NCBI GenBank assembly: GCA_965224465.1
Contig: OZ245049.1
Coordinates: 450,001 to 482,000, forward strand
Reading direction: 5' to 3'
From: Flavobacteriaceae bacterium
Lineage (GTDB): Bacteria > Bacteroidota > Bacteroidia > Flavobacteriales > Flavobacteriaceae
DNA: 32,000 nucleotides
A program made the translations under genes and the position numbers. Positions 4,616 to 31,672 of the stretch are shown here, piece after piece. The notes beneath the pieces are model-generated. The model saw only the letters and a list, made by a program, of their open reading frames with translations, made no database searches and was not told the DNA's origin. Numbering within the stretch: the stretch's first letter is position 1; each line of letters opens with the position of its first letter.

Positions 4616-4620
4616 CTAAA

Positions 4621-4827: not shown

Positions 4828-4833
4828 TATATG

Positions 4834-5280: not shown

Positions 5281-5336
5281 GGAGAAGTAACTGCGAAGCA
5301 ACTCACGAACACTCCTGAAATAAAATAGGTGAGTAA
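5281..5336. repeat. Degenerate copy of the 49-bp repeat family (orientation B)
   Basis: ggagaagtaactgcgaagcaactcacgaacactcctgaaataaaataggtgagt aligns to the consensus gggagtgaataactgcgaagctatcatgaacacctctaaaaaaataaaagggagtg. Confidence 0.6.
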
Positions 5337-5532: not shown

Positions 5533-8500
5533 ATGTACACACAGTTAATAGAAGACTATATTCAAGAAAACAGTAATTCCGTTATAAGAGCGCGTGGAAA
5601 AAACTTATCTGTAAGTGAATATGACGTTTCTCAAGACCTAAAGAGTGCCAATGGAAAAGTTATCGGATCACAGAACGACATCTACACAGTTCATGTTTTC
5701 TACATCATACCTGATACGATAAGCAGTTCTTGTAATTGCCCCTATAATCATGGAGGAATTTGTAAGCACGAAGTTGCTTTTCTTAATCTCTTAATTCTTC
5801 ATTTTGAGCAAGATTTTAATGCCAATAAAGCTTTACCTACCCTTTCAAAATCAACAAACTCCACTAATTCAGACAAAGAAATATGGATTGAATACGATAC
5901 TGCTAGTATTATTAGACATGGAGATTCCGCTGAAAGTATAAGTCCAAATAATAATAATAATAATTCCTATTCCCGAAATTTTGAAGTATCACAAATTGTC
6001 GAAATATCCACACAAAAAAACGGTTTTACTATATCTTTACATACCTATCCTGGCTATAATAGAGGAATTGTAAAAATACGTGTGAACAAATCTATTGTAA
6101 AGGCAAGTTGTACTTGTGATATTAAGAACAATCAAGGTCAGTGTAGTCATTTAAAATTTGGAATTAGATATTTAATAACCGAGCACAATCAGTTATTAGC
6201 AAAGCACCCAGAAATAGCTATTATTCTTTCTGAAGTTAATGAAGATTATGGACTGGATAAAAAATCAAAAGGTAATTTTAGCTTATTTTGGAACGCAGAC
6301 GAAGGCTTATACATAAATTTTAAAGGACCTAAATTTGTGCATTACAATCCTGAGCAACAAAAATTTTCCATCGCAAACAACAATGGTTTTACCCCTTTGA
6401 ACCCCTCAATAGATAATGAGGATATCTACAAACAATTATTGCCTCAAGCAAAAAAAGGAGCCCGTTCTAAAATAGGTGTTGGATTTGCTTTTCTTTTTGA
6501 TTTTCAACCTACATGGAGAGAGCATGAAGGGTTGGAATTGTTATTCCTAAAAGGTAATTTATTAAAAAACGGCACCCGGTTTTCTTCAAAAATCACACCT
6601 ATAAAACAACATGAACTCGTAAAAGAGCTGAGCACTACCAAAGAACTCAAAGAACTAGGAAGCCAATATATACTACTTTCAGAAATCTTAGATTATGATA
6701 AAATTGACAGCTGCTCTTTTGACATATTACAAGAAATATGGGAACCAATGGCTTCGAATAAAACTTACTATAAAGACTGTTATTCCCAAAGCGACTCTTA
6801 TTCTAGACACGACTTGAAGCCTCTAGAAATACAAATCACCCCATTAATAGTACGTTTCGATATTCAAGAAAAAGAATCAATCTTAACCATTGTAATTTCC
6901 CTTAAAACAACAGACCACACTATTAATTTAAACCAAGATTACCGTCTAAACAATGCACTATTACTACAAGATGAAGTATTATATCGTTTCGAAACATTGG
7001 AACAGTATCATGTTTTTCTAGAATACAAAAACAATTTAACCTTTAAAATTTCTTCTAAATTTAAAGAAGACTTTTTTATTCAGGTAATTAAACCCCTAGA
7101 AAAAATTGTCGAAGTCACTTATCATTTAAAAACTAGTAAAACCGTTAAAATTGACTATAAACATCATAAAATTCAAATGTTTATCAGTCAATATTTAGAC
7201 CACGTGGTAATACGTCCAAATCTATACATCACCAAAGACTTGCAATTTGATTTACTAAGTCCAATTTCTTCCATTTTTAATGAAAATACTTTTCATAAAA
7301 GGAATCTAAAAGAGGAACAAAAAATTATTTCCAAGTTCTATAAAAATAACCCCAACCTCACAAAAAAAGCGGTCGCTTCTATTTTCGCCTTACCTTTTAC
7401 AGAATTCATACAGGACTATTGGTTTTTAAAGCAGATCAACCTGTGGAAAACGCAGGGCATTGAAACTTTCGGGCTCAACACCTTGGAAAACTTTAATTAC
7501 CGGACAAGCATGCCTACGGTTAGCCATAGCATCTCCTCACAAACCGATTGGTTTGACGTTCAGATGGAAGTAAAATTTGATGATGAATTAGTTCCGCTAA
7601 AAGTTTTAAAAAAGGCTGTGATGAAACAGCAAGAATATGTCTTACTTAGCGATGGAACCAAAGGTATATTGCCAAAAGAATGGCTTGATAAATTCTCCAA
7701 AATATTAAGAGCTTCACATATTGGAAAAAATGGATTAGAAATCTCAAAATTACGGTTCTCAGCCCTGGACTTACTCTTTAACGAAACCAATGCTACACAA
7801 GACATCCTTGAATACAAAGAAAAGATCCAAGATCTTTTAGCAAATTTTGATACACTTCGCCCCGTAAAAGTATCAAAAAAAATATCCGCTACACTCAGAG
7901 ATTATCAGTTGGCAGGACTTAATTGGTTGAATTTTTTGGATGATTTTAATATAGGAGGCTGTCTAGCAGATGACATGGGACTAGGAAAAACACTTCAAGT
8001 AATTGCTTTTTTACAACATTTAAAAGAAAAAAAGAAAAAAAATAAAGCACATTTAGTAGTACTTCCAACCTCTTTAGTCTATAACTGGGTTGCGGAAATT
8101 GAAAAGTTTTGTCCTAGTTTAAAAATACATATTCACACAGGTATAAAAAGAGAAAAGAACACCGATTCTTTTCAGAAATACGATCTTGTAATCACAACCT
8201 ATGGCTTGGTAATTAGGGATATATCTTTCTTAAAATCTTATACTTTTGAGTATGTAATTTTGGATGAATCACAATCAATTAAAAACCCTACATCACAACG
8301 CTATAAAGCCGTAAAATTATTAAAAGCGAGAAATAGACTTGTACTCACTGGAACTCCTGTAGAAAATAGTTTGATGGATCTATATGCTCAGTTTAACTTT
8401 ATCAACCCAGGATTTTTAAATACACAAACCGATTTTAAAGAAAACTATATCAATCCCATAGAAAAAGAGGGCGTTGAAGTAATTCAAAACGAATTAAGGC

Positions 8501-9270
8501 AATTGATCAATCCTTTTATGCTTCGCAGGACAAAAAAGCAAGTAGCCAAAGATCTTCCTGAAAAAGTGGAACAAATTTTATACTGTTCCATGGGGAAAAA
8601 GCAAGAGCAGCTATATCAATTTTATTTAGCCAAAATCAGAAAATCCATCATGGAGGAAGTTGAAGAGGAAGGCTTAAACAAATCCAAACTAAAGGTCTTA
8701 GCAGGTTTAACCAAACTTCGCCAATTATGTAACTCCCCAAGACTCGTAGGAGAAGACGAGGAAGAATCTGTTAAAATTGAAGAACTATTAACGAGCATCA
8801 AAGAAAAAACAGGCGATCATAAAATCCTTATTTTTTCTCAATTTGTAAAAATGCTACAACTCATAGAAGAACAATTAAAAAAAGAGGGAATTATTTATGA
8901 GTATCTTGATGGAAAAACAAAAAACAGACAAGAACGTGTGGATCGATTTCAATCAGACCCCAAAATTCGTGTGTTTTTAATCAGTTTAAAAGCTGGAGGA
9001 ATAGGACTCAATCTTACCGCAGCAGACTATGTGTATATTGTAGATCCATGGTGGAACCCTGCCGTAGAAAACCAAGCAATTGATAGAACACACCGCATAG
9101 GACAACATAAAAACGTGACTGCCTATCGCATGATCTGTAAAGACACCATCGAAGAAAAAATATTAATACTACAAGAACGAAAAAGAAAACTTTCCGAAGA
9201 TATTATTGCTACAGATGAAAGTTTCGCAAAAAAAATAACGAAAAAAGACCTGGAAGAATTGTTCAGTTAA
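5533..9270 (+). CDS. SNF2/SWI2-family helicase with two SWIM zinc fingers, copy 2 (full length, 1245 aa)
   Basis: SWIM fingers CNCPYNHGGICKHEV and CTCDIKNNQGQCSHL. The helicase motifs are the same as in copy 1. It is collinear with copy 1 at a constant offset of 6068 nt with no indels. Confidence 0.95.
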   Translation: MYTQLIEDYIQENSNSVIRARGKNLSVSEYDVSQDLKSANGKVIGSQNDIYTVHVFYIIPDTISSSCNCPYNHGGICKHEVAFLNLLILHFEQDFNANKALPTLSKSTNSTNSDKEIWIEYDTASIIRHGDSAESISPNNNNNNSYSRNFEVSQIVEISTQKNGFTISLHTYPGYNRGIVKIRVNKSIVKASCTCDIKNNQGQCSHLKFGIRYLITEHNQLLAKHPEIAIILSEVNEDYGLDKKSKGNFSLFWNADEGLYINFKGPKFVHYNPEQQKFSIANNNGFTPLNPSIDNEDIYKQLLPQAKKGARSKIGVGFAFLFDFQPTWREHEGLELLFLKGNLLKNGTRFSSKITPIKQHELVKELSTTKELKELGSQYILLSEILDYDKIDSCSFDILQEIWEPMASNKTYYKDCYSQSDSYSRHDLKPLEIQITPLIVRFDIQEKESILTIVISLKTTDHTINLNQDYRLNNALLLQDEVLYRFETLEQYHVFLEYKNNLTFKISSKFKEDFFIQVIKPLEKIVEVTYHLKTSKTVKIDYKHHKIQMFISQYLDHVVIRPNLYITKDLQFDLLSPISSIFNENTFHKRNLKEEQKIISKFYKNNPNLTKKAVASIFALPFTEFIQDYWFLKQINLWKTQGIETFGLNTLENFNYRTSMPTVSHSISSQTDWFDVQMEVKFDDELVPLKVLKKAVMKQQEYVLLSDGTKGILPKEWLDKFSKILRASHIGKNGLEISKLRFSALDLLFNETNATQDILEYKEKIQDLLANFDTLRPVKVSKKISATLRDYQLAGLNWLNFLDDFNIGGCLADDMGLGKTLQVIAFLQHLKEKKKKNKAHLVVLPTSLVYNWVAEIEKFCPSLKIHIHTGIKREKNTDSFQKYDLVITTYGLVIRDISFLKSYTFEYVILDESQSIKNPTSQRYKAVKLLKARNRLVLTGTPVENSLMDLYAQFNFINPGFLNTQTDFKENYINPIEKEGVEVIQNELRQLINPFMLRRTKKQVAKDLPEKVEQILYCSMGKKQEQLYQFYLAKIRKSIMEEVEEEGLNKSKLKVLAGLTKLRQLCNSPRLVGEDEEESVKIEELLTSIKEKTGDHKILIFSQFVKMLQLIEEQLKKEGIIYEYLDGKTKNRQERVDRFQSDPKIRVFLISLKAGGIGLNLTAADYVYIVDPWWNPAVENQAIDRTHRIGQHKNVTAYRMICKDTIEEKILILQERKRKLSEDIIATDESFAKKITKKDLEELFS

Positions 9271-9343
9271 GAGGTAATAACCCGCAAACTATTCAATACT
9301 GAATGCACTCCATAAATGCAAGTACTTTGTTAATCAATAATGA

Positions 9344-9373
9344 GATGCAGGAGAATTATAAATCACCTGCATT
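9344..9373. terminator. Copy-2 counterpart of the 3275-3304 hairpin
   Basis: GATGCAGG ... CCTGCAT inverted repeat, in the same position relative to the helicase stop codon. Confidence 0.35.
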
Positions 9374-9385
9374 AAACACTAAAAA

Positions 9386-9624
9386 ACCCATGCGATCATT
9401 TGGATTTAACTTCCAGTTTTTTGTGGCTATATTCAGCAACCAACCTTCTGGGATTAAGCCTTCAAAAAAAGGAAATATTCGTTCACTTAGAGACGGTTCC
9501 TTTTGAACAGGCATGGTACATGTGATAAAATCTTGTGGATTGTTCTTAATATATAATCACCTTGATCACGTTCCTTCAATATACCTGTCGTTAACTCTCC
9601 GTATTTAATAATTGCTTTTCTCAT
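9386..9624 (-). pseudogene. HipS-like pseudogene (3'-truncated and frameshifted)
   Basis: Aligns to 4355-4620 of copy 1 but is 22 nt shorter. It reads MRKAIIKYGELTTGILKERDQGDYI and then shifts frame. The PFFEGLIPEGWLL segment survives only in another frame. The last ~24 codons and the whole kinase gene are missing. Confidence 0.8.
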
Positions 9625-9629
9625 GTAAA

Positions 9630-9836
9630 TTATTTTAAATTACGACTATCTAAAACCCCTAATTCATACCCAAACACCCGCAAGACCAAGTATGCTTTTT
9701 CTACACTCAGATTGGTTTTTTGGTGTTCAATTTTTCGTACCACAGTTAAGGCCTCCCCTGCCCTTTCAGCAAATTGGGTCTGTGTTAATTGGATTGATTT
9801 TCTACGGGTCTTTACAATTCTAGCTAAGGTATTCAT
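9630..9836 (-). CDS. XRE-family HTH protein, orphaned HipB-like copy
   Basis: 68 aa, intact, and a close paralogue of 4621-4827 with about 10 substitutions. One operator-like box, TTTTACGTATAAAAC, is retained at 9845-9860. Confidence 0.75.
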   Translation of the reverse strand: MNTLARIVKTRRKSIQLTQTQFAERAGEALTVVRKIEHQKTNLSVEKAYLVLRVFGYELGVLDSRNLK

Positions 9837-10224
9837 TAGATATTTTTACGTATAAAACTATTGAAAATGATACAATTATATGGGAAAGTATATAGAACTA
9901 AGTGAACAGTATATCCATACAGATTTTGTTGGGATATTACGGAAGACAACGCATAAACAACGTTAAAACTAATAAAATAGTATTCTAAAAAAGAGACTAG
10001 AATAGATCTTCAGGAAATAAAGAATTTCAAACGCATCGTACTACACCACCAACATTCGTAAGCCTGGTAAAAACAAGACTATTCATCGTTTGTATATAAA
10101 AAACAAGCACTGCTTACAGAATTGAATCAGCAGGTCCAAGAACCTGTTTTTAAACAGTTCTTTAGAAATTGATGGCTATGAACAAAAGATAAACGAACTT
10201 TAGGCATTTAAAATTAAACAGACA

Positions 10225-10639: not shown

Positions 10640-10880
10640 AAGGTGGAGGAAAATGTATGTGTAGTCAGCATGTAAAAAACCACAACATTTCTGCTGTGGT
10701 TTATAATTTTAATTACTGGTTTTACTCATTGACGCTACATTAAAGATTCGTGCCGTAGTGATGGCGGATATTCGTGCGGCATCAGGGGATTCTCTTTCTA
10801 GGCACGGATTTAAAATCTGCGCTATCGCGTTGGTGGTATATCCAAGCTTTCGGGTATAAACAACCTTGGCCCTCTTTTTA
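10640..10880. repeat. Composite intergenic repeat R2, copy A
   Basis: Shares collinear blocks with 27880-28085. These are ggag.aaaatgtatgtg...catgtaaaaaaccacaaca and a 33-nt near-identical core (10746-10778 versus 28016-28048) holding two (A/T)ATTCGTGC boxes 24 nt apart. Confidence 0.6.
10674..10710. terminator. Bidirectional rho-independent-type terminator
   Basis: aaaaaaCCACAacatttctgcTGTGGtttataatttt: an AAACCACA/TGTGGTTT stem flanked by an A-run and a T-run. It lies between the convergent genes 10225-10584 (+) and 10938-13742 (-). Confidence 0.6.
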
Positions 10881-10937: not shown

Positions 10938-13742
10938 TTAACTACATAATTGCGCTAAAATGGTAGGGTCTTGAATCTTAGCATCTTCTGATAGCAGTTT
11001 CATTTTAGAAATAATTTCTGCAGATTTTGGATCGTCATCAATAAAAGGCAAAAACAAACGTCCACGATGCTGACTATGCACAGGAATAATAGATAAACTC
11101 ACTCCGTTTTTACTTACAATCCCACTTCCTAAATGTATGGTATAGTCACCTAATTTTCCATGGATAAGAATATGACGTTCTTTAACAACTACATTATCGA
11201 GTTGGAATAAAACAGCTGATTCTCTGCACAAAACAGCCCGCATTTCCATGGTAGAATAACTCGCCTCAGGATCCACTCCTCCCACATGAGCCACACTAAC
11301 TACCAAGTCAACATCACGCATCACCTCACTAAAAACAACTGAATTTACATCCTTTAAAGCGATTGGTTTATAGTCCTTTTCACTGTAAAAACAAACATAT
11401 TCTAACGTAGGTGCTTCAATATCAGAAGGCGAATACCAATCTGCCATGGCATACATACTTACAACATATCCCTTTTTGTGATACACCTTTTGCAATCCTT
11501 CATCATAATCTACAGTCCAACCTCTTGATCGGAGTAACGAAACCGTTTTTCTAGGTTGAATTTGATGTCCTTGATACCTTTGAGAACGTGTTCCTGTTTC
11601 AATTTCATTTTTGGTAACCACATACAACTCTCTAAAAATTTGTTTAAAAGGCTGTGTCAACTGCTTGGTAAACGCATGTTTTTGATACATGGATAACGTC
11701 TTACTCGTAAACAGATGTGATGCATGCGCAATCACAAAACGGTCTGTTCCCTCAACCATTAATTGATGATTTTCTAAAGTATAGATTCCGTCAATTTTCC
11801 AAAATCCAGACTGCTTTGTCTTCTTATTAAACAATACCAATTTTCCTAACAGCACTTTTACAATAGGATGTTCCATGATAATCGCTAGTTCATGAACGCT
11901 AAACTCGTCTTCAAGAATCATGGCATCCTCAAGCGATTTTCTAGTTCTAGTATATTGATTTTTTAAATACCTTCTCCCCTCTTGCAATGCTATAATTGCC
12001 TTCTCTTTTTTTAATTTGACAGGCAAACTTTTTAATGACTTTCCGTTTTTCTGGACGTTTAAATCCGCTTTCCCAAAAGTATCTATACGTAATTCAACTT
12101 TAAACACATCTATTTCAACAATGGCATTTTTCATGATCTCTAAGGTTGCTTTCGCTTCCATTGCCCATGAAAAACGAATCCTATCTTCAAAACCTGCATT
12201 TCTAGAAAGGTTGTCTAAGCCAATTTCTACTGCCTTCTTCTCACTTTCTTGCCGTTGTGCACCAAATTGTTTACGCTCTTTTAAAAAGCATTGTAACACA
12301 TTGTAACGTTGCAATACATCTTTCTCTCTATTTGTTTTACTCAAAGGAATCAAGCCCAAAGCTTTGACATATATTTTATCTCGTTTTTCCTTGATTTTTA
12401 ATATGGTTTCTCTGATTTTTAATTCTCCAAGCATTACATTGGAATACAATTTCACTTGGCGATGCGCATGCCCGTCTGAAATGTATTTAGACCCTTCGTG
12501 AATTATTTTCCAATTTGCTTTACCTAAAGCTGTATACACTTCCTGAAACCAATAAACATCAAAAGCACCTTCTTGAAAATCTTGTTTATCAATGGACGAA
12601 TACCGTGCAACTATAGCCTCTTTTTCTTTACTCATATAGTCGGAAGCATGGGCATGGAACCACCAGACCGCACTTTCTAAAGCAGGCATCCCAAGCAACT
12701 GACCTATCCATGGCACTAAATGAGGAACATAACACGCCACTTCTATCCATCTTTTTTTACTGATGTTAGATTTTCCAGCTTTTTCTATAAAATCGTCCAC
12801 CGTTTCACTTTCTAAAGGATGACAATGTTTTATTAAATAGCTAAACACCTCTTTCTTAGAATCCCCGTAATAATACCCTCTAGTAAAATTCTCTTTTTCT
12901 AGGCGATCTAACAATTTAAACAGATAGTCAATCCCCGATACGTTGGATATATTACAAATATACCGCGTTACTTCTGTAGGTAAATCTCCCCTTTCTAACT
13001 CAATATCAATAATTCTATTTTTCAAACTTTTGAAGAGATGAAAAGGCAATACTTCGTTTTTAAACGCTCTTACTTTATACTTATTTTGCCCCGTCTGATC
13101 TAGTAATTTCATAAAATCATCACTCAATAATAATTGAAATTGAAAATCTTCTTCCGTAATAAGCTTATTTTTATAAGCATGGTAGCTAATAAAATCCAAT
13201 GGGGCATTCACTTTTTGATATTGGGTAGCTGTCAAGACATCTATTGATTTTGGTAATTCCGGAGCATTGACAGCACAAGCAGCAATATACATTCTTAAAT
13301 CATAGTAACGTTTTAAAGCCTGAGGATTGTTAATCATTTCTGTTTGAAACTGGCATAAACATGGACCTAAGCCAATGCAAGCTATCAAATTGTACCACCC
13401 TATTCCAACAGCGTATCCCCTTCCGTCTAGCGGTATTTCATTCTTTTTAAATGATGTAGGTAAACGTGCAATCATGTCCTCTAATTCGTCTATTTTATAA
13501 CGTAACAATACGTCAGTATCCGCATACGCCTTAAAAAAACAATTCAAAATAAAATAGGCATTCTCATCCCGATTTCTATACTTACTTTTTGGTTTTAAAT
13601 GATGTCCTTTTAAGTCAGGGATATAGGATTTCAGAAAAGGAATAAGCGTTTTACATTCAGAATATGGGAGTGCTGGATTATTGGCGTAATGCAAAGCCGT
13701 CATCAATTCAAAACTATTCAATTTATGCTTCTCATACCACAT
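10938..13742 (-). CDS. DUF4132 (MolR/YehI-like) domain protein with a conserved acidic C-terminal module, 934 aa
   Basis: The block IVKVLLGKLVLF..FVIAHASHLF..QPFKQIFRELYVVT..SQRYQGHQIQ..LLRSRGW matches my recollection of the DUF4132 signature. C-terminal segment: MRDVDLVVSVAHVGGVDPEAS ... HLGSG ... LFLPFIDDDPKSAEIISK. The start lies 3 nt after the stop of the upstream gene. Confidence 0.7.
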   Translation of the reverse strand: MWYEKHKLNSFELMTALHYANNPALPYSECKTLIPFLKSYIPDLKGHHLKPKSKYRNRDENAYFILNCFFKAYADTDVLLRYKIDELEDMIARLPTSFKKNEIPLDGRGYAVGIGWYNLIACIGLGPCLCQFQTEMINNPQALKRYYDLRMYIAACAVNAPELPKSIDVLTATQYQKVNAPLDFISYHAYKNKLITEEDFQFQLLLSDDFMKLLDQTGQNKYKVRAFKNEVLPFHLFKSLKNRIIDIELERGDLPTEVTRYICNISNVSGIDYLFKLLDRLEKENFTRGYYYGDSKKEVFSYLIKHCHPLESETVDDFIEKAGKSNISKKRWIEVACYVPHLVPWIGQLLGMPALESAVWWFHAHASDYMSKEKEAIVARYSSIDKQDFQEGAFDVYWFQEVYTALGKANWKIIHEGSKYISDGHAHRQVKLYSNVMLGELKIRETILKIKEKRDKIYVKALGLIPLSKTNREKDVLQRYNVLQCFLKERKQFGAQRQESEKKAVEIGLDNLSRNAGFEDRIRFSWAMEAKATLEIMKNAIVEIDVFKVELRIDTFGKADLNVQKNGKSLKSLPVKLKKEKAIIALQEGRRYLKNQYTRTRKSLEDAMILEDEFSVHELAIIMEHPIVKVLLGKLVLFNKKTKQSGFWKIDGIYTLENHQLMVEGTDRFVIAHASHLFTSKTLSMYQKHAFTKQLTQPFKQIFRELYVVTKNEIETGTRSQRYQGHQIQPRKTVSLLRSRGWTVDYDEGLQKVYHKKGYVVSMYAMADWYSPSDIEAPTLEYVCFYSEKDYKPIALKDVNSVVFSEVMRDVDLVVSVAHVGGVDPEASYSTMEMRAVLCRESAVLFQLDNVVVKERHILIHGKLGDYTIHLGSGIVSKNGVSLSIIPVHSQHRGRLFLPFIDDDPKSAEIISKMKLLSEDAKIQDPTILAQLCS

Positions 13743-13745
13743 TTT

Positions 13746-15932
13746 TCAAACATCTGGAAGGGGTAAATACTGTAGGCGTTCTTGAGCATCTATTCCCTTA
13801 ACATTGCGTACAAACTCAATTTCTTTCTCTAAAATTGTAGTTACAATAGCACCATAATAATCATGGTATTGATACTCGTAGTTTTTATTTTCAGCAAGGA
13901 GAAAAACCAAGTCATTGATGGCAGTAACAAGTTTTTTGATATTTATTACTGCAGGATAGAGCAAGGAACTCGAAGTAGCAAACACCCGTTCTATAAATCC
14001 TTTTTTAACTGTTGATTCCAAGCATAATTTAGGATCTAATAAGGGTGATATATTTTTGTAATTGATGAGTCCAAATCCATTTTTAAAATGATATTCCTTA
14101 ACAGTCCCTTCAAATTTATCAATAAATAACTGCTCATTTTTAATAATTTTAGCCCTTGTCATATACGCTTGAATGATGGACGCATTGAAATCTAAAAATG
14201 ACGGATGGTCTATTAATTTTGAAATAATTTCTAAACCTGCCAAACGTTGGTCTATTTTTTTTGATACCACTATATGTTCTACAATTCTCTTTATCTCTAA
14301 ATCATCCTGCGCAAGCACTAAGGAAATAAGGCTTGTTCGTATCTCTTTATTTTTTTTCGCAAGCAATCCCTCTATTTTCAGCATATCCAAAGGTGTTATC
14401 CTAATGGACTTTAACACCCGTAAACTTGTGGCTAGTACAGAAATATTACGATCATTTAAACCTTGATACATTACCTGTTTTTCCCAAGAAGTGTCACTAA
14501 GCTTTATGGGGGTAATTTTATCTGACGACGCTCCTACTGACCAATTAAAATGATTTGGAAACACAACTCGCATATATTTTTCTCTAGATTCGGAAGGCAA
14601 TTCTGAAATATTTTGAGCCAATAATTCTAACTGTGCCGCTTGACTATTTGCAATGGTAAAATCATAAAAGAAATTGGGTGTAATTTTATAATAGCTCCAT
14701 AAGAACACCTGCCCATTATGTACTGTACCTTTGCTAGGAAGTGATTTTGCAGTACGGTATATTTTACAAAACAAATCGTCTTTTATTTTAACAGAAAACA
14801 CATTTTTAAGCAACCAATAATCCACTTCTACATCTGCTCCAAAATTGGCTTCTACGTAGGCATACAAATGTGTGCTAGACCTACCTGTAGTATTGATAAA
14901 CATACAGGCTAGTAATTTTTTTTCTTTGCATCCCTTTTCTAGAATATGTACTGCATGCAAATTTGCTTGATCTACATCCGTGAGTCCGATATACCACAAA
15001 GCGATATACACTTCCAAATTGTCGTTGCTTTTTAAAGCTTGCGCCACGAGCAAGGAATTTTCAAAAAACGAAGCACTTATTTCTAACACCCGTTTTACTG
15101 TCGTTTTTTTAGGAGCTTCCCATCCAAAACCAAACCAGCAGTTCACAGCACGAATCACACTACTAAAGCGCATTAAATCATGCTGTAAAATAATGGTTAT
15201 AAAATAATGTAGCGCCCCTAAATGGGTTTCATCCAATACTTCTAAAATAGTTTGACGAAGCCCTTCTTGGCGCTGAGCTGCAATTAATAAGTCCGCAACT
15301 AATTTCCAATTTTCTTCTTTATCGCTTAGTAATAATCCTTTTAAAATACTTCTAGAAACCCCTCCTATTTCGTCTTCAGATTGTAGAATATCTTTCACCA
15401 AGTTTCTAATTTCAGGGTCTCGTTCTGAGAAAATAACCGCAAAAATATATTCGTAACCAGTGCCTTCAAAATAGACATTAAATCGAATGAGTTCTTTTAT
15501 ATCCATTCCCTTAAATCCTTTATCTAATGATTCAAAAATCTGGGTAAGCACACTAAATTTGTTTGTTGTATAGGCATCGGAAGGCTGGATACGAAAAGAA
15601 CGACGTGCGTATCCCATTTGATATGGCGATGTATTTAAAAGATTCCAGACGTTGGGAATGTATTCTGAGATAACCGATCCGAAAATAAGAAGTATCAATT
15701 GTTTCCCCTCTTTTTCTAAAAACGGATTCAACATGGCATCCTCTCCAAAATGCTGTTTGTAGAGTTTTAGCTCTTTATGAACATCCCTATAATAACCGAT
15801 TTTAGGGATAAAACCACAAATAATACTACCTAAAACCTTATATTTTTCACTAAAACTACTAAAATCATTCTCTATTATTTTCTGTTGTTTTTTGGACGCA
15901 ATTAATGCCAGCGCTGTTTCTTTTTGAATCAT
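13746..15932 (-). CDS. Hypothetical protein, 728 aa, apparently all-helical, middle gene of the operon
   Basis: Long uninterrupted ORF, spaced 16 nt and 3 nt from its neighbours. No motif recognised. Confidence 0.75.
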   Translation of the reverse strand: MIQKETALALIASKKQQKIIENDFSSFSEKYKVLGSIICGFIPKIGYYRDVHKELKLYKQHFGEDAMLNPFLEKEGKQLILLIFGSVISEYIPNVWNLLNTSPYQMGYARRSFRIQPSDAYTTNKFSVLTQIFESLDKGFKGMDIKELIRFNVYFEGTGYEYIFAVIFSERDPEIRNLVKDILQSEDEIGGVSRSILKGLLLSDKEENWKLVADLLIAAQRQEGLRQTILEVLDETHLGALHYFITIILQHDLMRFSSVIRAVNCWFGFGWEAPKKTTVKRVLEISASFFENSLLVAQALKSNDNLEVYIALWYIGLTDVDQANLHAVHILEKGCKEKKLLACMFINTTGRSSTHLYAYVEANFGADVEVDYWLLKNVFSVKIKDDLFCKIYRTAKSLPSKGTVHNGQVFLWSYYKITPNFFYDFTIANSQAAQLELLAQNISELPSESREKYMRVVFPNHFNWSVGASSDKITPIKLSDTSWEKQVMYQGLNDRNISVLATSLRVLKSIRITPLDMLKIEGLLAKKNKEIRTSLISLVLAQDDLEIKRIVEHIVVSKKIDQRLAGLEIISKLIDHPSFLDFNASIIQAYMTRAKIIKNEQLFIDKFEGTVKEYHFKNGFGLINYKNISPLLDPKLCLESTVKKGFIERVFATSSSLLYPAVINIKKLVTAINDLVFLLAENKNYEYQYHDYYGAIVTTILEKEIEFVRNVKGIDAQERLQYLPLPDV

Positions 15933-16865: not shown

Positions 16866-16930
16866 ATTTTCGCCTCCTTCTTATTTTTTTAGAGATGTTC
16901 ATGACTTCCACTTCACTACAGTTCACTCAA
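16866..16930. repeat. 49-bp repeat family, variant unit (orientation A)
   Basis: ttttcgcctccttcttatttttttagagatgttcatgacttccacttcactacagttcactc. Closest to the reverse complement of the variant at 28311-28372. Confidence 0.7.
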
Positions 16931-17234
16931 TTAATTAATTTCGTGTCTACGTAAACTCTTTTGATTTTCTTATGGGATTGCAATGATGTGGGTACTTACA
17001 CAAGTAATTATGCCTCTGTATACCGCTTACTCGTCATTAATTTATTTAACACAAAAGAAACTCCTAAGTTGCTCTACTTAAATTTGTTTAGCCTGCCCCG
17101 TAATTGATGCGGAGTCAGTACCGAGATTTGTAGAAGTATATTCTTATGCCTCAATCGCAAATAATCTTCAGATAAAACGGCACGAATTATACCCTAGCGA
17201 TTTACTAATAAGTATTCACAGTTTCCAATTTTAT

Positions 17235-17305
17235 GGAGCTCCTGATAGCTTCGCAGTTATTCACTCCCTTTTATTTTTTTAGAGGTGCTCATGATAGCTA
17301 CGCAG
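17235..17305. repeat. 49-bp repeat family, partial unit plus one full unit (17257-17305, orientation A)
   Basis: ttattcactcccttttatttttttagaggtgctcatgatagctacgcag differs from the consensus at 2 positions. Confidence 0.85.
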
Positions 17306-17702
17306 TTCAGAACGATACTCCTGTATATAAAGGACTTGCACCCTCTATATTAATAAACTACCTTTCGGAAAGTCAATAAGATCGGGGCAAGCCCACGAGG
17401 CATGAAAAAGAAAAAACTTAATCATTTCGATGCAAGCATCGGGGAATTAAACCCACTGATGGGATTAAAAGATACCCGTGCTGGGTACACACAACGTATA
17501 AAAATAATAAGGATTAAGTGCTAAACCAAAAGTTGGTGTATTTTAACAAAGTCCGCCAAATTTAAAACTTGACGACTAAAAGAAAATAACGGTAAAATTG
17601 TGATTTTTGCTAAGTGCTAAATTCGAAAGTAAGTACATTTTAAGCCCTTACTATTCATATACGAACCAGTTGTAAATAATGCTACCATCACATCAAAAAA
17701 AC

Positions 17703-20527: not shown

Positions 20528-20734
20528 ATTCACAAAGGGAAACACGCACTATTTACAATCGAATAGACAACACCAACTAGCTGCTGGCAGGCACCTCTCA
20601 CACCACCATACATACGAGAGCTTCGCTCGGACATTTCTAATTATACGTTTAAAAACACTTCTAGTTCTCATAAACCTATACGACGGTTCAAAAATTTGAA
20701 GTTTGCGTATTATTATTGGTTAATAACAAAGGCA

Positions 20735-20877
20735 TATACCCTTTTTAGAACAAGTCTAGATTTGGGTTTGGTAGACTTTAAAATTGGACTTTATTATTAT
20801 TATTCACTCCCTTTTATTTTTTTAGAGGTGTTCATGATAGCTTCGCAGTTATTCACTCCCTTTTATTTTTTTAGAGG
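20735..20877. repeat. Repeat head (~62 nt) plus 1.6 units of the 49-bp repeat (units from 20800 and 20849, orientation A), truncated by IS30
   Basis: The head catataccctttttagaacaagtctagatttgggtttggtagactttaaaattggac is the inverted counterpart of 28233-28293. Unit 1 matches the consensus exactly. Unit 2 stops at ...ttagagg, where the IS30 terminal repeat begins. Confidence 0.85.
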
Positions 20878-22003
20878 CTTAAATTCAACTAATAAACGCA
20901 ACTTTTCGATTTGATTCTATGATGGTTATATTTTCAAAACAGAAAAGTAGGAAAACCTACCTTTCTTGTCTTGATGGATATGTATCTTACGGTCTCAAAT
21001 CTCGAAAAAAGAAGTTGTATGAAACACATCACCCAAGCGCAAAGATACACAATTTGTTGCATGTTAAAACAAGGTTATAAACAGGTTGAGATAGCAGCTG
21101 CTATAGGAAAAGACAAGTCTGTTATTAGCAAAGAGATTAAGCGTAATTCAGACAAAAGAAATGGAGTTTACAAGCATGAATTAGCCCAAAAAAAGTATGC
21201 TAAACGTCATAAAGAAAAGCCTAAAAGAAAACGCTTTACAGAAGATATTCAACAAGCAATAGAGTTGTTATTGCGAGACGATTATAGTCCTGAGCAAGTA
21301 GTTGGTGTCCTAAAAAAACAAGGTAAAGAAACGGTGTCTATTGAGCGTATATATCAGCATATTAGGGAAGACAAGAGGAATGATGGTGATTTACATACAC
21401 ACCTTCGCAGACAGGGAAGGAGATATAGAAAACGTGGCTCATCAAAGGATTCTAGAGGGGTTATAAAGAATCGTATTAGTATAGAACAACGCCCTGAAGT
21501 TGTTGAACAAAGAAATCGATTTGGAGATTTAGAGGTCGATTTAATCATAGGTAAAAACCATAATCAAGCCATACTTACCGTAAATGATAGAGCTTCTGGA
21601 ATGCTTAAAATGAAAAAAGTAAGCTCTAAAGAAGCAGTTGTTGTCACTAAAGCTATCAATGAAATATTAGAAGACTGGAAGCCTTATCTACATACTATAA
21701 CAGCTGATAATGGAAAAGAATTTGCAGGCCATGAGCAGGTTGCAGAAAATTTATGTATTGATTACTTTTTTGCGCATCCATATCACTCTTGGGAAAGAGG
21801 ATCTAACGAAAATTTAAATGGTTTGATTAGACAATATTTTGCCAAAGGAAGTGACTTTACAAACCTAACAGATCAAAGAATCAAAGAGGTAGAAACAAAA
21901 TTAAATAACAGACCTAGGAAGAGACATAAATATCAAAACCCTATATTTGTAATGGAACAATTATTATTTAACTAAAAGTTGCGTTTGTGACTTGAATTCA
22001 GCA
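20877..22003 (+). mobile_element. IS30-family insertion sequence (~1.13 kb)
   Basis: Imperfect terminal inverted repeats: gcttaaattcaactaataaacgcaactttt (20877-) versus the reverse complement of aaaagttgcgtttgtgacttgaattcagc (-22003). One transposase gene. No clear target-site duplication was seen. Confidence 0.8.
21019..21975 (+). CDS. IS30-family DDE transposase
   Basis: N-terminal HTH (MKHITQAQRYTICCMLKQGYKQVEIA). DDE region: EVDLIIG ... TITADNGKEF ... SWERGSNENLNGLIRQYF. I prefer the ATG at 21019 over the TTG at 20971. Confidence 0.9.
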   Translation: MKHITQAQRYTICCMLKQGYKQVEIAAAIGKDKSVISKEIKRNSDKRNGVYKHELAQKKYAKRHKEKPKRKRFTEDIQQAIELLLRDDYSPEQVVGVLKKQGKETVSIERIYQHIREDKRNDGDLHTHLRRQGRRYRKRGSSKDSRGVIKNRISIEQRPEVVEQRNRFGDLEVDLIIGKNHNQAILTVNDRASGMLKMKKVSSKEAVVVTKAINEILEDWKPYLHTITADNGKEFAGHEQVAENLCIDYFFAHPYHSWERGSNENLNGLIRQYFAKGSDFTNLTDQRIKEVETKLNNRPRKRHKYQNPIFVMEQLLFN

Positions 22004-27069: not shown

Positions 27070-27879
27070 ACTTTTTACGTTTTATCTGTTGTTTCCTGTT
27101 GCTAATTTACGAAAATTTAAGCTGCAAAAACAGCTCTAACCCCTTGCAAACACTAGTAAAATAAAATTTAAGACGATTTCGTATTATTTATTTTTTTTAT
27201 GTGCTTACGAAAACGATGTAAATGGAAGGTTCTTTTTTATTTAGAACCATTCTAAATCATTACGATCTATTTCTTTTCTTCAAAATGATTTAAAAAAATT
27301 CAAACTATAACGTTTTCGCACGCTGTAATTCGTTCTTGCTTTTTTATAAAATGATGCATAAAACGAGATGTGTGTTCGTGCACATAACCTATGTTAAGCA
27401 ATTCCTAAAGATGAATTAATGTAAAAATGATACCTATTTGAGTGTGTGAAACAATGAATAATCACCTTCAAGAAAAACAAAGTAAACAAAAGATGCTTTC
27501 TATATGCATATATAATAGGTATAGAAATTAGACATCATAGTTTGGTCTAATGAAAAAAAGAAGGATACGGTGTAAAGATCCACGCATTTAAAGCACTCAA
27601 ATCTAATACGCTAGTCCTTATTTATGTTATCAATCAACTCGTTGAGACAAACAGGTTCTTCCTAAATAATTTATTCAATAGCATTTATTGAATTTGTAAA
27701 TTGAGATCCATACATAATAATTGATATCTACAGTCCTTTCTTTTAAATCATAATGATAAGAATTGCGGTTGCATTTTAAGTTCCTGCTCTAAATTACTCA
27801 TAACCGTTTCGCAATAAGCGCTGCCTGTATTTGTACCGTCTTTAAAGCCCTAGGTTTTCTTTCCTTTTTGGAAATGATA

Positions 27880-28085
27880 AAGTGGAGAAAAATGTATGTG
27901 AAGGCAACATGTAAAAAACCACAACATGATTGCTTTGGTTTTGATGTTTTATAAAAATCTGCTGAACCATTACACTTAATGGCTGTGTGGCTTACTTGTT
28001 GACGACACACGATAAAATCGTGCGTTAGCGATGGTGGATATTCGTGCGCCAGCTGGGAATAAGGGGAGGATGGGCAGTTGCCCAA
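27880..28085. repeat. Composite intergenic repeat R2, copy B
   Basis: Collinear with 10640-10880 (see that entry). It abuts the 49-bp array directly. Confidence 0.6.
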
Positions 28086-28232
28086 CGGCGTAGCCCTCAT
28101 GAACACCTCTAAAAAAATAAAAGGGAGTGAATAACTGCGAAGCTATCATGAACACCTCTAAAAAAATAAAAGGGAGTGAATAACTGCGAAGCTATCATGA
28201 ACACCTCTAAAAAAATAAAAGGGAGTGAATAA
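28086..28232. repeat. Tandem array of three 49-bp units (orientation B; 28086, 28135, 28184)
   Basis: The period is exactly 49 nt. Units 2 and 3 are identical (ctgcgaagctatcatgaacacctctaaaaaaataaaagggagtgaataa). Unit 1 diverges at its 5' end. Confidence 0.95.
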
Positions 28233-28372
28233 TAATGTCCAATTTTAAAAACTACCAAACCCAAATCTAGACTTGTACGAAAAGGGTTTTATGTAGATAC
28301 GGCAGTGATTGAGTGAACTGTAGCGAAGTGAAACTCAAGAACACCTCTAAAAAATAAAAAGGAGGTGAATAT
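28233..28372. repeat. Repeat head (28233-28293) plus variant 49-bp-family unit (28311-28372)
   Basis: The head is the inverted copy of 20735-20799. The variant gagtgaactgtagcgaagtgaaactcaagaacacctctaaaaaataaaaaggaggtgaatat matches the 16866-16930 variant in reverse complement. Confidence 0.8.
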
Positions 28373-28676
28373 AGAAGATGTCATTATCTGGGGAGGTCTC
28401 CAAAGCCACGAGTTGGTTCTATGGAGAAGTCAGCAGACGTCTAGTACCTATAGGAAACGAGTTGAGGAAAGACCTCAGAGGTCTCACAAATAGGGAAGGA
28501 CAGAACATTAAATTACGTTGGAATTCAATTAGAATGCCTAGCTAGCCTAGTTTTAAACCAACAGGAGTACCCGAATTATTTAACCTATGATTGACAAAGT
28601 ATTAGAAGCTACCAACCTTTTTAAAGCAGCACGTCAAGTAAAGCGAAATAAAGGTGCGAGCGGAGTTGATGGGATG

Positions 28677-28767
28677 AACCATCCGAGAAGAAATATTCCT
28701 AAGAAAGACTATTTATCTTCGGATGCTCTATGTGACCGATTTAAATAAATAAAACCGTCACATAAAA
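28677..28767. repeat. ~90-nt hairpin-bearing miniature insertion inside the RT ORF
   Basis: Lies between GVDGM and VTELSTY, which are normally separated by one or two residues. Contains the inverted repeats atccgagaagaaata/tatttatcttcggat and tgtgac/gtcaca. Confidence 0.55.
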
Positions 28768-28995
28768 GTAACGGAACTTTCAACTTATATAGTTGAAAAC
28801 CGTTCAGACATACTAACAACGATCCGTAAGAATAGCTATGATCCAAACTCAATCTTAGGAGTAAGTATTCCAAAAGGCAAGGGTAAAACCAGACTTTTAG
28901 GAATCCCAACAGTAGTAGATAGATGGCTACAACAAGCAGTAAATCAACAATTAATGGTTCAGTTCGAATATGATTTTGAGCCACTTAGTTTTGGG

Positions 28996-29044
28996 TTATT
29001 CACAGCTTTTTATTTTAGGGAGTTCATGAGCTCCCGTTGGTCGG
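28996..29044. repeat. 49-bp repeat-family unit inserted in the RT ORF
   Basis: Exactly 49 nt separate the codons ...AGT TTT GGG and TTT AGA CCT.... Removing them restores SFGFRPQK, the canonical RT SxGFRP motif. The insert ttattcacagctttttattttagggagttcatgagctcccgttggtcgg aligns to the repeat consensus. GGTT occurs at both junctions. Confidence 0.8.
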
Positions 29045-29506
29045 TTTAGACCTCAAAAGAACATCCAAAAAGCAGTATTACAAGCTCAGCAGTATATCAA
29101 TAATGGTTACCAAGATATTGTAGATATTGACCTTAAAGGGTTCTTTGATGAAGTGGACCATTGCATCCTACTACAGCTTATTTACCACAAGGTAAAATGT
29201 TTTTCCAAGTTTTTAAACCCATCGCTATTTTAGCAGCATCTGCTTGGGTGTAAATAATTTCTGCAGCCGTTTTGCCTTGTATTGCCCAATGCATTTTGTT
29301 TTGTGTAGAAGCAAAAAAATCTTTGGTGGTAAAAGCATCTATACTATAATCGGCGGAAAGTGCGTAGATGTCTGTTATTTTTTGATAAAAACGCCTTTCA
29401 CTTAAACGTATTTCTCTAATACGTTCCAGCATTTCATCAAAGTAATCTTTCCTAAAATGTTTTACCTGTTTAAGACGTTCGTCATCCATTGCAAAGCCTT
29501 TAATAA

Positions 29507-31078
29507 CTCAAGTTTCGCACTTAGATAGATTTACGCAACCTCTTGATAGTTAAGCTTGTGGGTATTCACTAGGAATCCAAAATCTTCAATATTCGCTATT
29601 ATTTTACGTGTAACCATTTCAACATCAATAGATTCAATCATCTTTTCCAAAATGTCAATCACCAAGCTGATAACTGCTAATATCCTGATGTTTAGCTTAT
29701 TCTCTATATAATCTTGTTTTAAATCTTTAAACAAGCCTCCTATAGTTTCGTAGGCTTCCATTCTATATCGAATACTGGTGAGTAAATATTGAACCATTAT
29801 AATGCTTATTTGTGCGATTTGAATATCGAAATTAGTAGACTGACATTTTCCAAGACCAAACAACTGCTTAGCTTCTTTAAAAAACACTTCTATGGACCAT
29901 CTGATACTGTATATTTCAATAGCCTTTACAAATTTCAGTGTTGTATCCGTTGATATTAACGTGTGCCATTTGCCATTCTTTCCACGTTTTGAAATAAATA
30001 CAGCAACCTTAAGACCATCAATTTCAGTTATGTAATGATGGTAGTAATAATTGAATTTACGGCATCGTTTTGGTTTTATTTTCTGTTTTTTGAGTTGTGA
30101 CAACGTTTTTATCTTTGATCGAACTTCAATCTTACTGTTGTATTTATACATCCCAATAATATGAGTTGAACTACTAATGTTCCGTAGCTTTCTAAGTAAT
30201 TTAACACTTGTAAACCAGGTGTCTATTAAGATGTAATCTATGGGGATTTTACGTTTTACAAGCCTTGAGAACATTTGAACTAGCAGGTCTGTTTTCTTTT
30301 TATTGAGTTCCTGATACCTCTTTGCTGCAATTGTTTTACTACATCTTGGAGTTTTCTTTTGAAGCCTACGTTGCTTCGCCGTTAGACCGTATTTTAATTT
30401 TGATGTTTTACTTTCACGATGCAAACTAAAGTCAACAGGGATAAATACACTTCCATTCCAATAACCAGCTACAAGTAGCTTAAAGCCTAGGTAATACGTT
30501 TTTGACACATGGTTGTATATTTTTGAAACACCTTCAATTGTCTTTCCTGTTTTAGAAAGATCAGTATCGTCAAAGATCAAGCACTTTGTAGCGTCTTGAG
30601 ATGGAGTAAAGAACTCTTCTTTTAATAGATATTGCTTCACAAACTGAGCTAGAAAAACCCTCCAATTTATCTTTTTATTTGCTAGGATTCGATAGTATGA
30701 ATCTTTACCCGACTGACCTAATCCCTTGTCTTTACTACTTGTAAGTCCATGAATAGAATCAAATCCGATAATAGGTAAAATTAAAAGTGTAGAGATTAAA
30801 TTACCGAATGAAATCCCCGATTTCTTACACCAACTAAACTTGTTTTTAATTTTATTGAATCCTAAAATATTTAGATGTGCTTGTAGGTATTCTGAACTAA
30901 GCCAAATCTTATTAAATTTTCCTTTTATCTCCTGTGTTTTTGTGATATCTTCGTGTTCTAGCATGTTTTGTACTTTCTTGTTCGTACTTAAAAGTACAAT
31001 AAAACCAGGGGATTACCTTGGTTTTCATGCTATTTATTTTTACTTAAACACCTGTAAATGATGGGTGCGAAACTTGAG
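29507..31078 (-). mobile_element. IS4-family insertion sequence (1572 bp)
   Basis: Perfect 14-bp terminal inverted repeats: ctcaagtttcgcac (29507-29520) and gtgcgaaacttgag (31065-31078). Flanked by a 7-bp direct repeat TTAATAA (29500-29506 and 31079-31085). Removing the IS and one TTAATAA copy rejoins the RhuM frame as YIIKGFAMDDERLK. Confidence 0.9.
29531..30964 (-). CDS. IS4-family DDE transposase (477 aa)
   Basis: CLIFDDTD, YILIDTWFTS and YSIRWSIEVFFKEAK. The last is the IS4 Y-x2-R-x3-E-x6-K signature. Confidence 0.9.
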   Translation of the reverse strand: MLEHEDITKTQEIKGKFNKIWLSSEYLQAHLNILGFNKIKNKFSWCKKSGISFGNLISTLLILPIIGFDSIHGLTSSKDKGLGQSGKDSYYRILANKKINWRVFLAQFVKQYLLKEEFFTPSQDATKCLIFDDTDLSKTGKTIEGVSKIYNHVSKTYYLGFKLLVAGYWNGSVFIPVDFSLHRESKTSKLKYGLTAKQRRLQKKTPRCSKTIAAKRYQELNKKKTDLLVQMFSRLVKRKIPIDYILIDTWFTSVKLLRKLRNISSSTHIIGMYKYNSKIEVRSKIKTLSQLKKQKIKPKRCRKFNYYYHHYITEIDGLKVAVFISKRGKNGKWHTLISTDTTLKFVKAIEIYSIRWSIEVFFKEAKQLFGLGKCQSTNFDIQIAQISIIMVQYLLTSIRYRMEAYETIGGLFKDLKQDYIENKLNIRILAVISLVIDILEKMIESIDVEMVTRKIIANIEDFGFLVNTHKLNYQEVA

Positions 31079-31487
31079 TTAATAATATACTAGTGCAATA
31101 TTTCGGTTGCCCATTTTCGGAATTCTATGGCCCTGGGTGAGTTTACACGGTAGCCAACAGCCGTAATGGCACGTAAATTATAAAATTTGGTGTTGTATAT
31201 TTTTCCATCTTCGGCAGTGTGTCGGAAATCCCGACATACTGATTATTCTACTAATTCTCCATCAGAGAAAACACCTTGCAAATGTTCGGTAATGGTGCTT
31301 CTGCCTTTGTCAAATAATTGACTTATTAATTTTTGAGTAAGCCACAACGTATCGTCTTTAAAATACACCGCTATATTTACCTTAGCAGTAGCTGTTTTAA
31401 AGATGACAAAATTTTCAACTTTCAATTGTTCATTATTATCCATTGTCAATGCTTTAATCATTACCAATCAATTTAGAATTTGTATTG

Positions 31488-31670
31488 CAGCTACGGTGCT
31501 TTTATTAAAACCTTTATTAGTTGCTACAATGGTTTTGCTCTTCATAATCAAAGTTATCATAGGGTTTTTATAGTTATAACTACTGCTTAAAGAAGCATAC
31601 AGCTCCGTAGGAGCAATACCTTTGTAAAAAGAAAAGCACAGAAATAAGCTAAGCTCCAGCGGAGCGACAC
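31488..31670. repeat. REP-like palindromic hairpins downstream of the RAYT gene
   Basis: GCTCCgtaGGAGC (31602-31614), GCTCCagcGGAGC (31653-31665) and a degenerate gcagctacggtgc (31488-31500). Each is followed by an ..acctttnt.. tail. A related ggagcgacctt/ggagcgacgc pair occurs at 5170-5205. Confidence 0.6.
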
Positions 31671-31672
31671 CT

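Follow-up and report, generated by a model that had tools for sequence, protein, structure and literature searches.

The window analysed here is a 32,000-nt stretch of DNA from a Flavobacteriaceae bacterium (GenBank assembly GCA_965224465.1, contig OZ245049.1, positions 450,001–482,000 of the forward strand) with a G+C content of 33%. It forms an island of genes of mobile and defence type (among them a duplicated SNF2 helicase gene, hipA, a DUF5724/DUF4132 gene, a DUF2931 gene with a Tle1-like gene, an insertion sequence (IS) of the IS30 family, an IS4-like element, a RhuM fragment and a Y1 transposase gene). The nearest named relatives of the IS30 and Tle1-like proteins are found in Polaribacter, Tenacibaculum and Aquimarina; together with the G+C content and the intron matches described below, they place the source among the marine Flavobacteriaceae. 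Our subject is a family of short repeat units, 49 nt long with variants of 46–56 nt, that occupies seven places in this window, most of them inside remnants of a group II intron. Positions are window coordinates throughout, and the unit strand is the one that reads CTGCGAAGC...GAATAA (Table 1).

A profile of the units searched with nhmmer recovers 11 units at seven places (E = 1e-14 to 6e-8) and nothing more in the window. These are exactly the seven places of the initial annotation, several boundaries of which had to be redrawn: 17235–17305 becomes two units at 17208–17305, 28311–28372 becomes a 55-nt unit at 28318–28372, 5281–5336 becomes 5291–5336 and 16866–16930 becomes 16866–16921. The consensus proposed there, in the orientation in which it was written, is matched exactly at 20800–20848 (+), 28135–28183 (−) and 28184–28232 (−) and with two mismatches at 17257–17305, and no such match is expected in shuffled sequences. 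Tandem Repeats Finder (TRF) reports 28097–28232 as 2.8 copies of period 49 with 100% matches, which together with the consensus matches bears out an array of exact 49-nt period at 28086–28232; its first unit (28086–28134) differs at four positions, all in the initial 11 nt. Arrays of three, two and at least 1.6 units are present, and adjoining units are always head-to-tail, with no inverted doublets and no alternation of the bacterial interspersed mosaic element (BIME) type.

The best-conserved segment of the unit is the core TCATGAAC, which contains the palindrome TCATGA. Near the 5' end, four of the ten complete units carry GTAG (28086, 17257–17305, 28318 and 16866–16921); GAAG replaces it in 28135, 28184, 20800 and 17208 (five with the solitary unit at 5291), and the unit at 28996–29044 has no GTAG. 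Among the intron units, those that lead an array or stand alone carry GTAG (as GCGTAGC or CTGTAG) and the array-internal ones GAAG, a tendency that reaches Fisher P ~0.08 with these few units.

Table 1. Repeat units, intron fragments, other inserts and associated features in the window (for repeat units the strand is the unit strand; a slash outside brackets in a motif marks an insertion point; RT, reverse transcriptase).
Feature	Position	Strand	Remarks
Solitary diverged unit, intergenic	5291–5336	+	After ...GGAGAAGTAA; sole copy without detectable intron context
'Type 2' unit, 56 nt, in intron fragment A	16866–16921	−	After ...ATTGAGTGAA; intron homology stops at the unit 3' end
Insertion A1, two adjoining units in intron domain I	17208–17305	−	After ...GTTCTGAA; 17257–17305 near main type, 17208–17256 strongly diverged variant
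Array C, 1.6 units	20800–20877	−	AVAQ/SPI site of a paralogous intron 3' fragment; upstream part removed by IS30
Array B, three head-to-tail units (28086–28134, 28135–28183, 28184–28232)	28086–28232	+	TRF, nhmmer; host is an RT C-terminal coding remnant, between ...GCAGTTGCCCAA (GGWAVAQ) and (A)GTCCAATT (SPI...)
'Type 2' unit, 55 nt, in intron fragment B	28318–28372	+	Intron position identical to that of the fragment A copy
Single diverged 49-nt unit	28996–29044	−	Antisense to RT gene; splits SFG/FRPQK
Intron fragment A	17492 to 16866	−	5' end GTGTG at 17492, through domain I to I/II
Intron fragment B	28061–28085 and 28233–28287, on to ~29200 (truncated)	+	RT C-terminal remnant (GGWAVAQ, then SPI...RKG); downstream part holds intron domains I/II–IV and the N-terminal 159 RT codons
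Intron fragment C	20558–20799	−	RT C-terminus, domain V (broken by ~55 nt), domain VI, intron 3' end
81-nt insert	17033–17113	−	Fragment A
23-nt insert	17146–17168	−	Fragment A; follows the TGAA/...ATAA/ rule
92-nt insert	17374–17465	−	Fragment A
~55-nt insert	~20600–20660	−	Inside domain V, fragment C
88-nt insert	28679–28766	+	Strongly hairpinned (z −5.4); splits GVDGM/K of RT; TGAA/C...CACATAA/
IS30-family element	20878–22002	+	Truncates array C at 20877/20878; not part of the repeat family
Two GCTCC-N3-GGAGC hairpins, 51 nt apart	31590–31672		3' of the Y1 gene
HUH/Y1 transposase gene, 3' 108 codons	31673–32000	−	Motifs DHTH, WQ, YILNQAEHH; window ends inside the gene

By homology, six of the seven places fall within fragments of one group II intron lineage (fragments A, B and C). 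Searched as DNA, the window best matches group II introns that plasmids of Tenacibaculum finnmarkense and Chryseobacterium carry, and seven related introns from other Flavobacteriia were used for comparison: L001 (T. finnmarkense), L002 (Chryseobacterium, with an intact ltrA), L005 and L006 (both JGI), L007 (Logan), L008 (ENA) and L009 (Formosa sp. L2A11, two copies). The Chryseobacterium ltrA (WP_143853008.1) is an intact RT of this intron lineage. Within the window, the Rfam model group-II-D1D4-1 gives a weak, sub-threshold match at 28400–28473. The sequence 3' of the arrays, which had been overlooked in the initial annotation, is the C-terminal coding end of the intron RT (SPI...RKG). As regards native intron or twintron features, the units are in none of the seven related introns or of eight homologous RT proteins, and Rfam has no match on them.

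Two further features of the intron DNA were noted. At 28277–28290, the RT C-terminal remnant is fused to domain I/II via a shared AAAAGGGT; the fusion has the appearance of a deletion, mediated by microhomology, between two intron copies that lay in tandem or were nested. The closest public RT homologues (L005–L009; proteins P0121–P0133) are nearly all truncated or frameshifted, at 136–279 aa versus 438 aa for intact ltrA, and the intron lineage seems to be decaying widely across Flavobacteriaceae.

Comparison with these relatives provides filled and empty versions of four intron sites. At 28996–29044, where the unit is exactly 49 nt long, tblastn with intact ltrA puts ...EPLSFG and FRPQKN... 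in different frames, 49 nt apart. The eight homologous RT proteins run uninterrupted through this point, as S(F/Y)GFRP(Q/K)KN, and the alignments of six related intron DNAs show a 49-nt gap here (439 versus 390 nt). The initial annotation had taken these 49 nt for an insertion rather than native sequence and had placed GGTT at both junctions. Both statements hold: the site is empty in the eight RT proteins and six intron DNAs, and GGTT is found at both ends (AACC on the unit strand). None of the homologues examined carries the 49 nt natively, so the insertion is real.

The other three intron sites are interrupted in the same manner: (i) in domain I, after GTTCTGAA, two units (~96 nt) stand where all seven related introns have 2 nt; (ii) at domains I/II, after GAGTGAA, fragments A and B hold 55–56 nt that are in none of the seven related introns, the site being contiguous in L001, L007, L008 and L009; and (iii) at AVAQ/SPI in the RT C-terminus, which is occupied by arrays B and C, the empty site GCCCAA/AGTCC is present in L007, L008 and L009. 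The earlier view of the RT copy, as the trace left by an inserting mobile element or by templated insertion, therefore stands, since this copy and the three further intron sites are all insertions. When paralogues are counted once, the alignments demonstrate at least five independent insertions, i.e. the four intron sites and the intergenic unit at 5291–5336, which has no intron homology nearby.

Judged from these sites, insertion is precise, oriented and always 3' of ...AA. On the unit strand, six of six left flanks end in AA (TCTAAA, GAGTGAA, TTCTGAA, GCCCAA, GAAGTAA and, at the 88-nt non-family insert, GATGAA); the corresponding tetramers are TGAA (three times), TAAA, CCAA and GTAA, with ATAA inside the arrays. 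The AA dinucleotide has a frequency of 0.13 in the window, which gives ~5e-6 for six of six, a value that is indicative only, because the boundaries were set post hoc. All insertions have the same phase, with a unit start at C (CTGCG(A/T)AGC...) and an end at ...G(A/T)GAATAA, and this speaks for an element with defined ends. There is no complementarity between CTGCGAAGC... and ...GAGTGAATAA at the two ends, and terminal inverted repeats are absent. Junction repeats across the filled and empty pairs amount to 4 nt (AACC), 2 nt (AA) and 0 nt, with one unclean case; this variation indicates that there is no fixed target duplication.

The same comparison bears on how arrays are built. Because the unit end ...ATAA resembles the target, insertion beside a resident unit is to be expected. 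The two units at 17208–17305 pair a near-consensus with a strongly diverged sequence, which fits re-insertion better than slippage, and the identical neighbours at 28135–28232 and the variation of TAA triplets at array ends are consistent with slippage. Both processes probably act.

The units also differ in age. The 'type 2' units of fragments A and B (55–56 nt) are 86% identical and share one intron position, which marks them as an old insertion that both intron copies inherited. Arrays B and C are 100% identical over 78–82 nt, and the RT remnant beside them differs at 8 of 58 nt (~13%); the chance of all B/C differences falling in the flank is P ~8e-4. Identical units between diverged flanks imply that the main subtype was inserted or homogenised after the flanks had diverged, and we infer that it is young or still being copied.

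Five non-family inserts were also observed in the same intron fragments. None is present in the seven related introns, and they bring the window-specific inserts to nine in ~2.4 kb of intron. No homologue or second copy of any of the five was found in anything searched. The 88-nt insert at GVDGM/K is in none of the eight homologous RT proteins or six intron DNAs and is not a detectable member of the family. The TGAA/...ATAA/ rule is not cleanly followed by the 92-nt, 81-nt and ~55-nt inserts. With nine small inserts, some of them in the RT frame and in domain V, this one intron lineage offers naturally occurring pairs of filled and empty sites from which the insertion rule can be worked out. 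It also raises the idea that intron DNA or cDNA is a favoured landing pad, or that the inserts were made by the intron RT. Inserts of this kind give rise to frameshifted 'RT fragments', which annotation pipelines then treat as genes of their own.

With moderate confidence, we interpret the units as lineage-restricted, non-autonomous nano-elements that insert precisely 3' of ...AA, that build arrays through a self-mimicking end and that are probably driven by a trans-acting, single-strand HUH enzyme. The insertion behaviour can be read directly from the filled and empty sites; the enzyme and the single-stranded route are proposed. By imitating the target, the 3' end of a unit (...ATAA) would let new units land beside resident ones, and adjacent landing together with slippage would generate head-to-tail arrays of exact 49-nt period. 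The enzyme would act in trans on single-stranded DNA, in the style of the HUH (Y1) tyrosine transposases of IS200/IS605 elements and of repetitive extragenic palindromic (REP) sequences with their RAYT transposases, enzymes whose insertions lie 3' of a short target and leave no duplication. Dead intron copies would collect units because their DNA is neutral, and perhaps also because intron DNA goes through single-stranded intermediates. The copy at 5291–5336, outside any intron, supports mobility beyond the intron. If mobile, the units would rank with the smallest bacterial elements for which precise insertions can be demonstrated, with neither a REP palindrome nor the inverted ends of a miniature inverted-repeat transposable element (MITE), and they would extend the notion of a minimal substrate for DNA mobilisation.

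A candidate enzyme is encoded 2.6 kb from the units. The Y1 gene at the end of the window has the signature Y---Q--HH of subclass 1.2. This subclass is limited to Bacteroidetes and Cyanobacteria, occurs in low copy number and has no assigned REP (Quentin et al. 2018; PMC6006769). A Y1 homologue of 60% identity in Bernardetia has inverted REP-like repeats on its flanks, arranged in ~50-nt direct tandems (REPtron-like), and these repeats include CTGCGTAGCT, the same ten bases as the 5' end of unit 17257–17305. An association of the units with RAYT genes, which had been put forward for testing earlier, goes no further than a weak lead: a Y1/RAYT-like gene lies nearby, and profiles show no connection of its repeats to the units. 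We treat the Y1 enzyme as a possible driver, i.e. as a lead and not as proof. Subclass 1.2 HUH/Y1 proteins are without a known substrate, and the unit family would give them a concrete candidate role.

Several results weigh against this interpretation, in particular against a widely mobile family and against a hairpin-recognising Y1 enzyme. Firstly, no copy of the units was found (i) in one genome per species of 185,579 species, with an exact 31-mer and a degenerate core pattern; (ii) in JGI metagenomes, with two patterns; (iii) in IMG/VR viral contigs; (iv) in plasmids and phages by BLAST, where Firmicute matches are at chance level; (v) in ~63 kb of ENA metagenome contigs bearing 99.9–100% identical IS30 and IS4-like copies; or (vi) in the ~27-kb syntenic Tle1 locus of a related species. 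Secondly, four of the five independent events lie in ~5% of the window (binomial P ~2e-5, or 7e-3 when only non-coding DNA is counted), a concentration that simple transposition does not predict. Thirdly, the commonest unit folds no better than shuffled sequences (minimum free energy −0.4 kcal/mol with z +0.8 as DNA, −4.5 with z −0.4 as RNA), and hairpin positions and stem register shift between variants, which is difficult to reconcile with a hairpin-recognising Y1 enzyme. Fourthly, 49 nt cannot hold the two canonical subterminal hairpins and linkers of IS200/IS605 elements. Fifthly, the window Y1-adjacent repeats look suggestively like the units by eye, but their local alignment with the units (Smith–Waterman, with shuffles) is marginal (P ~0.02–0.08), and linear and dimer profiles reveal no link of the units to these repeats or to the Bernardetia REPs. 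Lastly, two junctions are imperfect: TAT follows the 55-nt unit, and 2 nt are replaced at the domain I insert.

The nhmmer unit profile likewise finds no copy in 19 retrieved loci, and Rfam gives no match to the units at the gathering threshold or at E ≤ 1. The statement that no described element has this sequence agrees with the blank Rfam, plasmid, phage, genome and metagenome scans, and the family is best read as lineage-restricted.

The folding results also do not bear out two structural claims of the initial annotation, namely that each unit can fold and that adjacent units can form a longer imperfect hairpin. The main unit behaves like shuffled sequence both as DNA and as RNA, and the three-unit array reaches only z −1.5 and −1.9 on the two strands. 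The sole variant with a significant stem is the 55-nt unit (z ~−3). Towards its 5' end the unit has a GC-GAA-GC mini-hairpin, and towards the 3' end a weak CACCTCT/AGGGAGTG stem, but neither is significant or conserved. GCGAAGC and GCGTAGC are able to adopt the stable DNA mini-hairpin with a GNA loop, a known structure to which the folding program gives no significant score.

Among known systems, the units work most like the miniature elements of REP/RAYT or IS200/IS605 type and like the very small dispersed repeats of cyanobacteria. REP and REPIN elements are mobilised by RAYT transposases, and they include GTAG-tagged REPs inside genes (PMC3733652, PMC3116915). The units resemble them in being tens of nucleotides long, non-coding, non-autonomous, both dispersed and clustered and able to interrupt genes; in lacking the terminal inverted repeats of DDE-type elements and any target duplication; and in the presence of a Y1/HUH gene in the window with its own flanking hairpin repeats, of GTAG in four of ten complete units and of the CTGCGTAGCT shared with a Bernardetia REP. 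However, the main unit is not palindromic, the arrays are head-to-tail rather than inverted doublets, and the units do not flank the Y1 gene on its 3' side, the only side in the window, or have profile homology to the repeats that do; moreover, this gene belongs to the subclass that has no REP in Quentin et al. (PMC6006769).

The units have three features in common with the single-strand 'peel and paste' elements of the IS200/IS605 family and with their miniature derivatives, the palindrome-associated transposable elements (PATEs): the two ends are asymmetric, insertion is strand-specific and falls 3' of a short target (here NRAA) that is not duplicated, and the right end resembles the target. 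They are, however, too short for the hairpins mentioned above, and no cognate full-length element was seen. They differ from DDE-dependent MITEs in having neither terminal inverted repeats nor a target duplication of fixed length. The earlier remark that such a unit would be unusual for MITE or REP classes therefore remains valid, given the absence of terminal inverted repeats and of a convincing palindrome.

A further likeness is to the very small mobile repeats reportedly described by Elhai et al. in Genome Res in 2008, i.e. the small dispersed repeats SDR4–6, which are said to be 21–27 nt long and to occur in Nostoc and related cyanobacteria. They are likewise reported to be below 100 nt, to interrupt conserved sequences, to lie nested or adjacent, to be present in one lineage and not in its close relatives, and to have no known driver. 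Subclass 1.2 Y1 genes are common to Cyanobacteria and Bacteroidetes. In contrast to SDR4–6, with which they have no sequence similarity, the units are twice the size, form tandem arrays of exact period and are concentrated in a group II intron.

The alternative that fares best is copy-choice by the intron RT. While copying intron RNA during retromobility, the enzyme would have jumped at microhomologies to another RNA, or to a different part or copy of the intron RNA in which a unit was already present, and back, and would thereby have pasted pieces of 22–96 nt and multimers into intron cDNA that later entered the genome. Group II RTs are known for template switching, and the proposal accommodates the location of six of the seven places, and four of the five independent events, in one intron lineage, as well as the five additional singleton inserts (23–92 nt) that raise the total to nine in the same ~2.4 kb. 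By comparison, ~5 kb of other duplicated DNA in the window, of similar divergence, has no such inserts. The junction microhomologies of 2–4 nt (AACC, AA, AAG and TGAC) also fit, and the target GAGTGAA equals the unit 3' end GAGTGAA(TAA), as homology-guided switching predicts. We nevertheless consider RT copy-choice unlikely. Hits in the RT frame and domain V would inactivate the intron and make repeated rounds of retromobility unlikely; random switching predicts variable ends, whereas the units keep one constant phase; the unit at 28996–29044 is antisense to the intron, and that at 5291–5336 lies outside any intron; and the main-type units either postdate the 13%-diverged intron flanks or have been homogenised relative to them.

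A more specific version, which appears quite unlikely to us, is that the units and the five other inserts are fossils of RT template switching in which a short, abundant RNA of ~49 nt was copied end-to-end, sometimes repeatedly, into intron cDNA. If this were true, a bacterial retroelement would have captured and spread foreign sequence, in a manner akin to the transduction of host sequences by retroviruses.

A non-mobile minisatellite would require a single origin, after which the sequence spread as intron fragments were duplicated, through unequal crossing-over or slippage, and by gene conversion between paralogues. The model for this would be the mycobacterial interspersed repetitive units and variable number tandem repeats (MIRU/VNTR), which are 40–100-bp units that occur both scattered and as direct tandem arrays whose length varies, lying between operon genes with short coupling open reading frames (ORFs). 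The exact-period array with identical units, TAA-triplet slippage at array ends, the clear paralogy of two places to two others (type 2 in A/B; arrays B/C) and the lack of detected copies elsewhere are all in keeping with it, as are direct tandem arrays of a 40–100-bp unit at several loci. Yet duplication cannot yield four non-homologous intron positions and an intergenic site, and the four filled and empty pairs largely refute it; single precise insertions at new sites and opposite orientations with precise junctions relative to empty sites are left unexplained. The units further differ from MIRU/VNTR in lying in pseudogenised intron DNA in either orientation and in a length (49) that is not a multiple of 3. 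On balance, we find this origin very doubtful.

That the units are a functional RNA or regulatory module (e.g. a small RNA, a terminator, a translation signal or a protein-binding cassette) spread by its usefulness seems hardly probable at all: the core TCATGAAC with its palindrome is conserved and units stay identical as flanks diverge, but there is no Rfam match even at E ≤ 1 and no significant or conserved fold, copies are found in either orientation within pseudogenised intron fragments and disrupt reading frames, and none was found in any other taxa searched.

Three narrower candidates were rejected. A Gram-positive ribosome-binding site with an anti-Shine–Dalgarno hairpin (AAAGGGAG...ATG) is ruled out because the DNA comes from a Bacteroidota and the Firmicute phage and plasmid BLAST matches are at chance level; a Shine–Dalgarno-like GGGAG has no relevance in Bacteroidota. 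The stretch of 50 nt that follows the arrays is not a separate element or transposon end, nor are the arrays the inverted ends of a 7.3-kb composite transposon, since this flank is RT C-terminal coding sequence and the IS30 flanks are non-contiguous. A mini-intron, suggested by a CUGCG 5' end and by a bulged A that lies 8 nt from the 3' end and resembles a group II branch site, was discarded as both features are confined to the main type.

Returning to the nano-element interpretation, the IS30 element appears to have no part in it. An association of the repeats with IS30 had been put forward for testing, but this element simply cuts one unit, and the same IS occurs in unrelated contexts in related contigs. 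Its non-contiguous flanks point to an adjacent rearrangement. The IS30 element (20878–22002) and the IS4-like element (29504–31079) are 99.4–100% identical to copies in ENA assembly ERZ25073217 (L003, L011 and L014), so the ERZ25073217 sample contains an organism very closely related to the source. Assembly ERZ25072152 has identical IS copies as well.

A second repeat family, of ~70 nt, is present at 27992–28060 and 10722–10790 in the window and at 1608–1669 and 4249–4290 of contig L003. It reads TTGACG.CAC..ATAAAATCGTGCG.TAGCG...ATTCGTGCG and includes a hairpin, CACGAT-AAA-ATCGTG. One copy adjoins the RT C-terminal remnant directly upstream of array B, and a conserved terminator-like piece precedes each copy in the window (10640–10702 resembles 27879–27941).

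The window also contains a tandem duplication of ~6 kb with 87–93% identity (1–3317 versus 6069–9386; 4346–4847 versus 9377–9856), which spans the SNF2-family helicase gene and hipA-N/HTH; the second copy is without hipA and has a 22-nt deletion. The DUF5724/DUF4132/DUF7737 gene (10938–15932, minus strand) consists of two adjacent ORFs (728 and 934 aa) that jointly cover the 1214-position DUF5724 profile, and the split represents either a frameshift or a stop-codon pseudogene.

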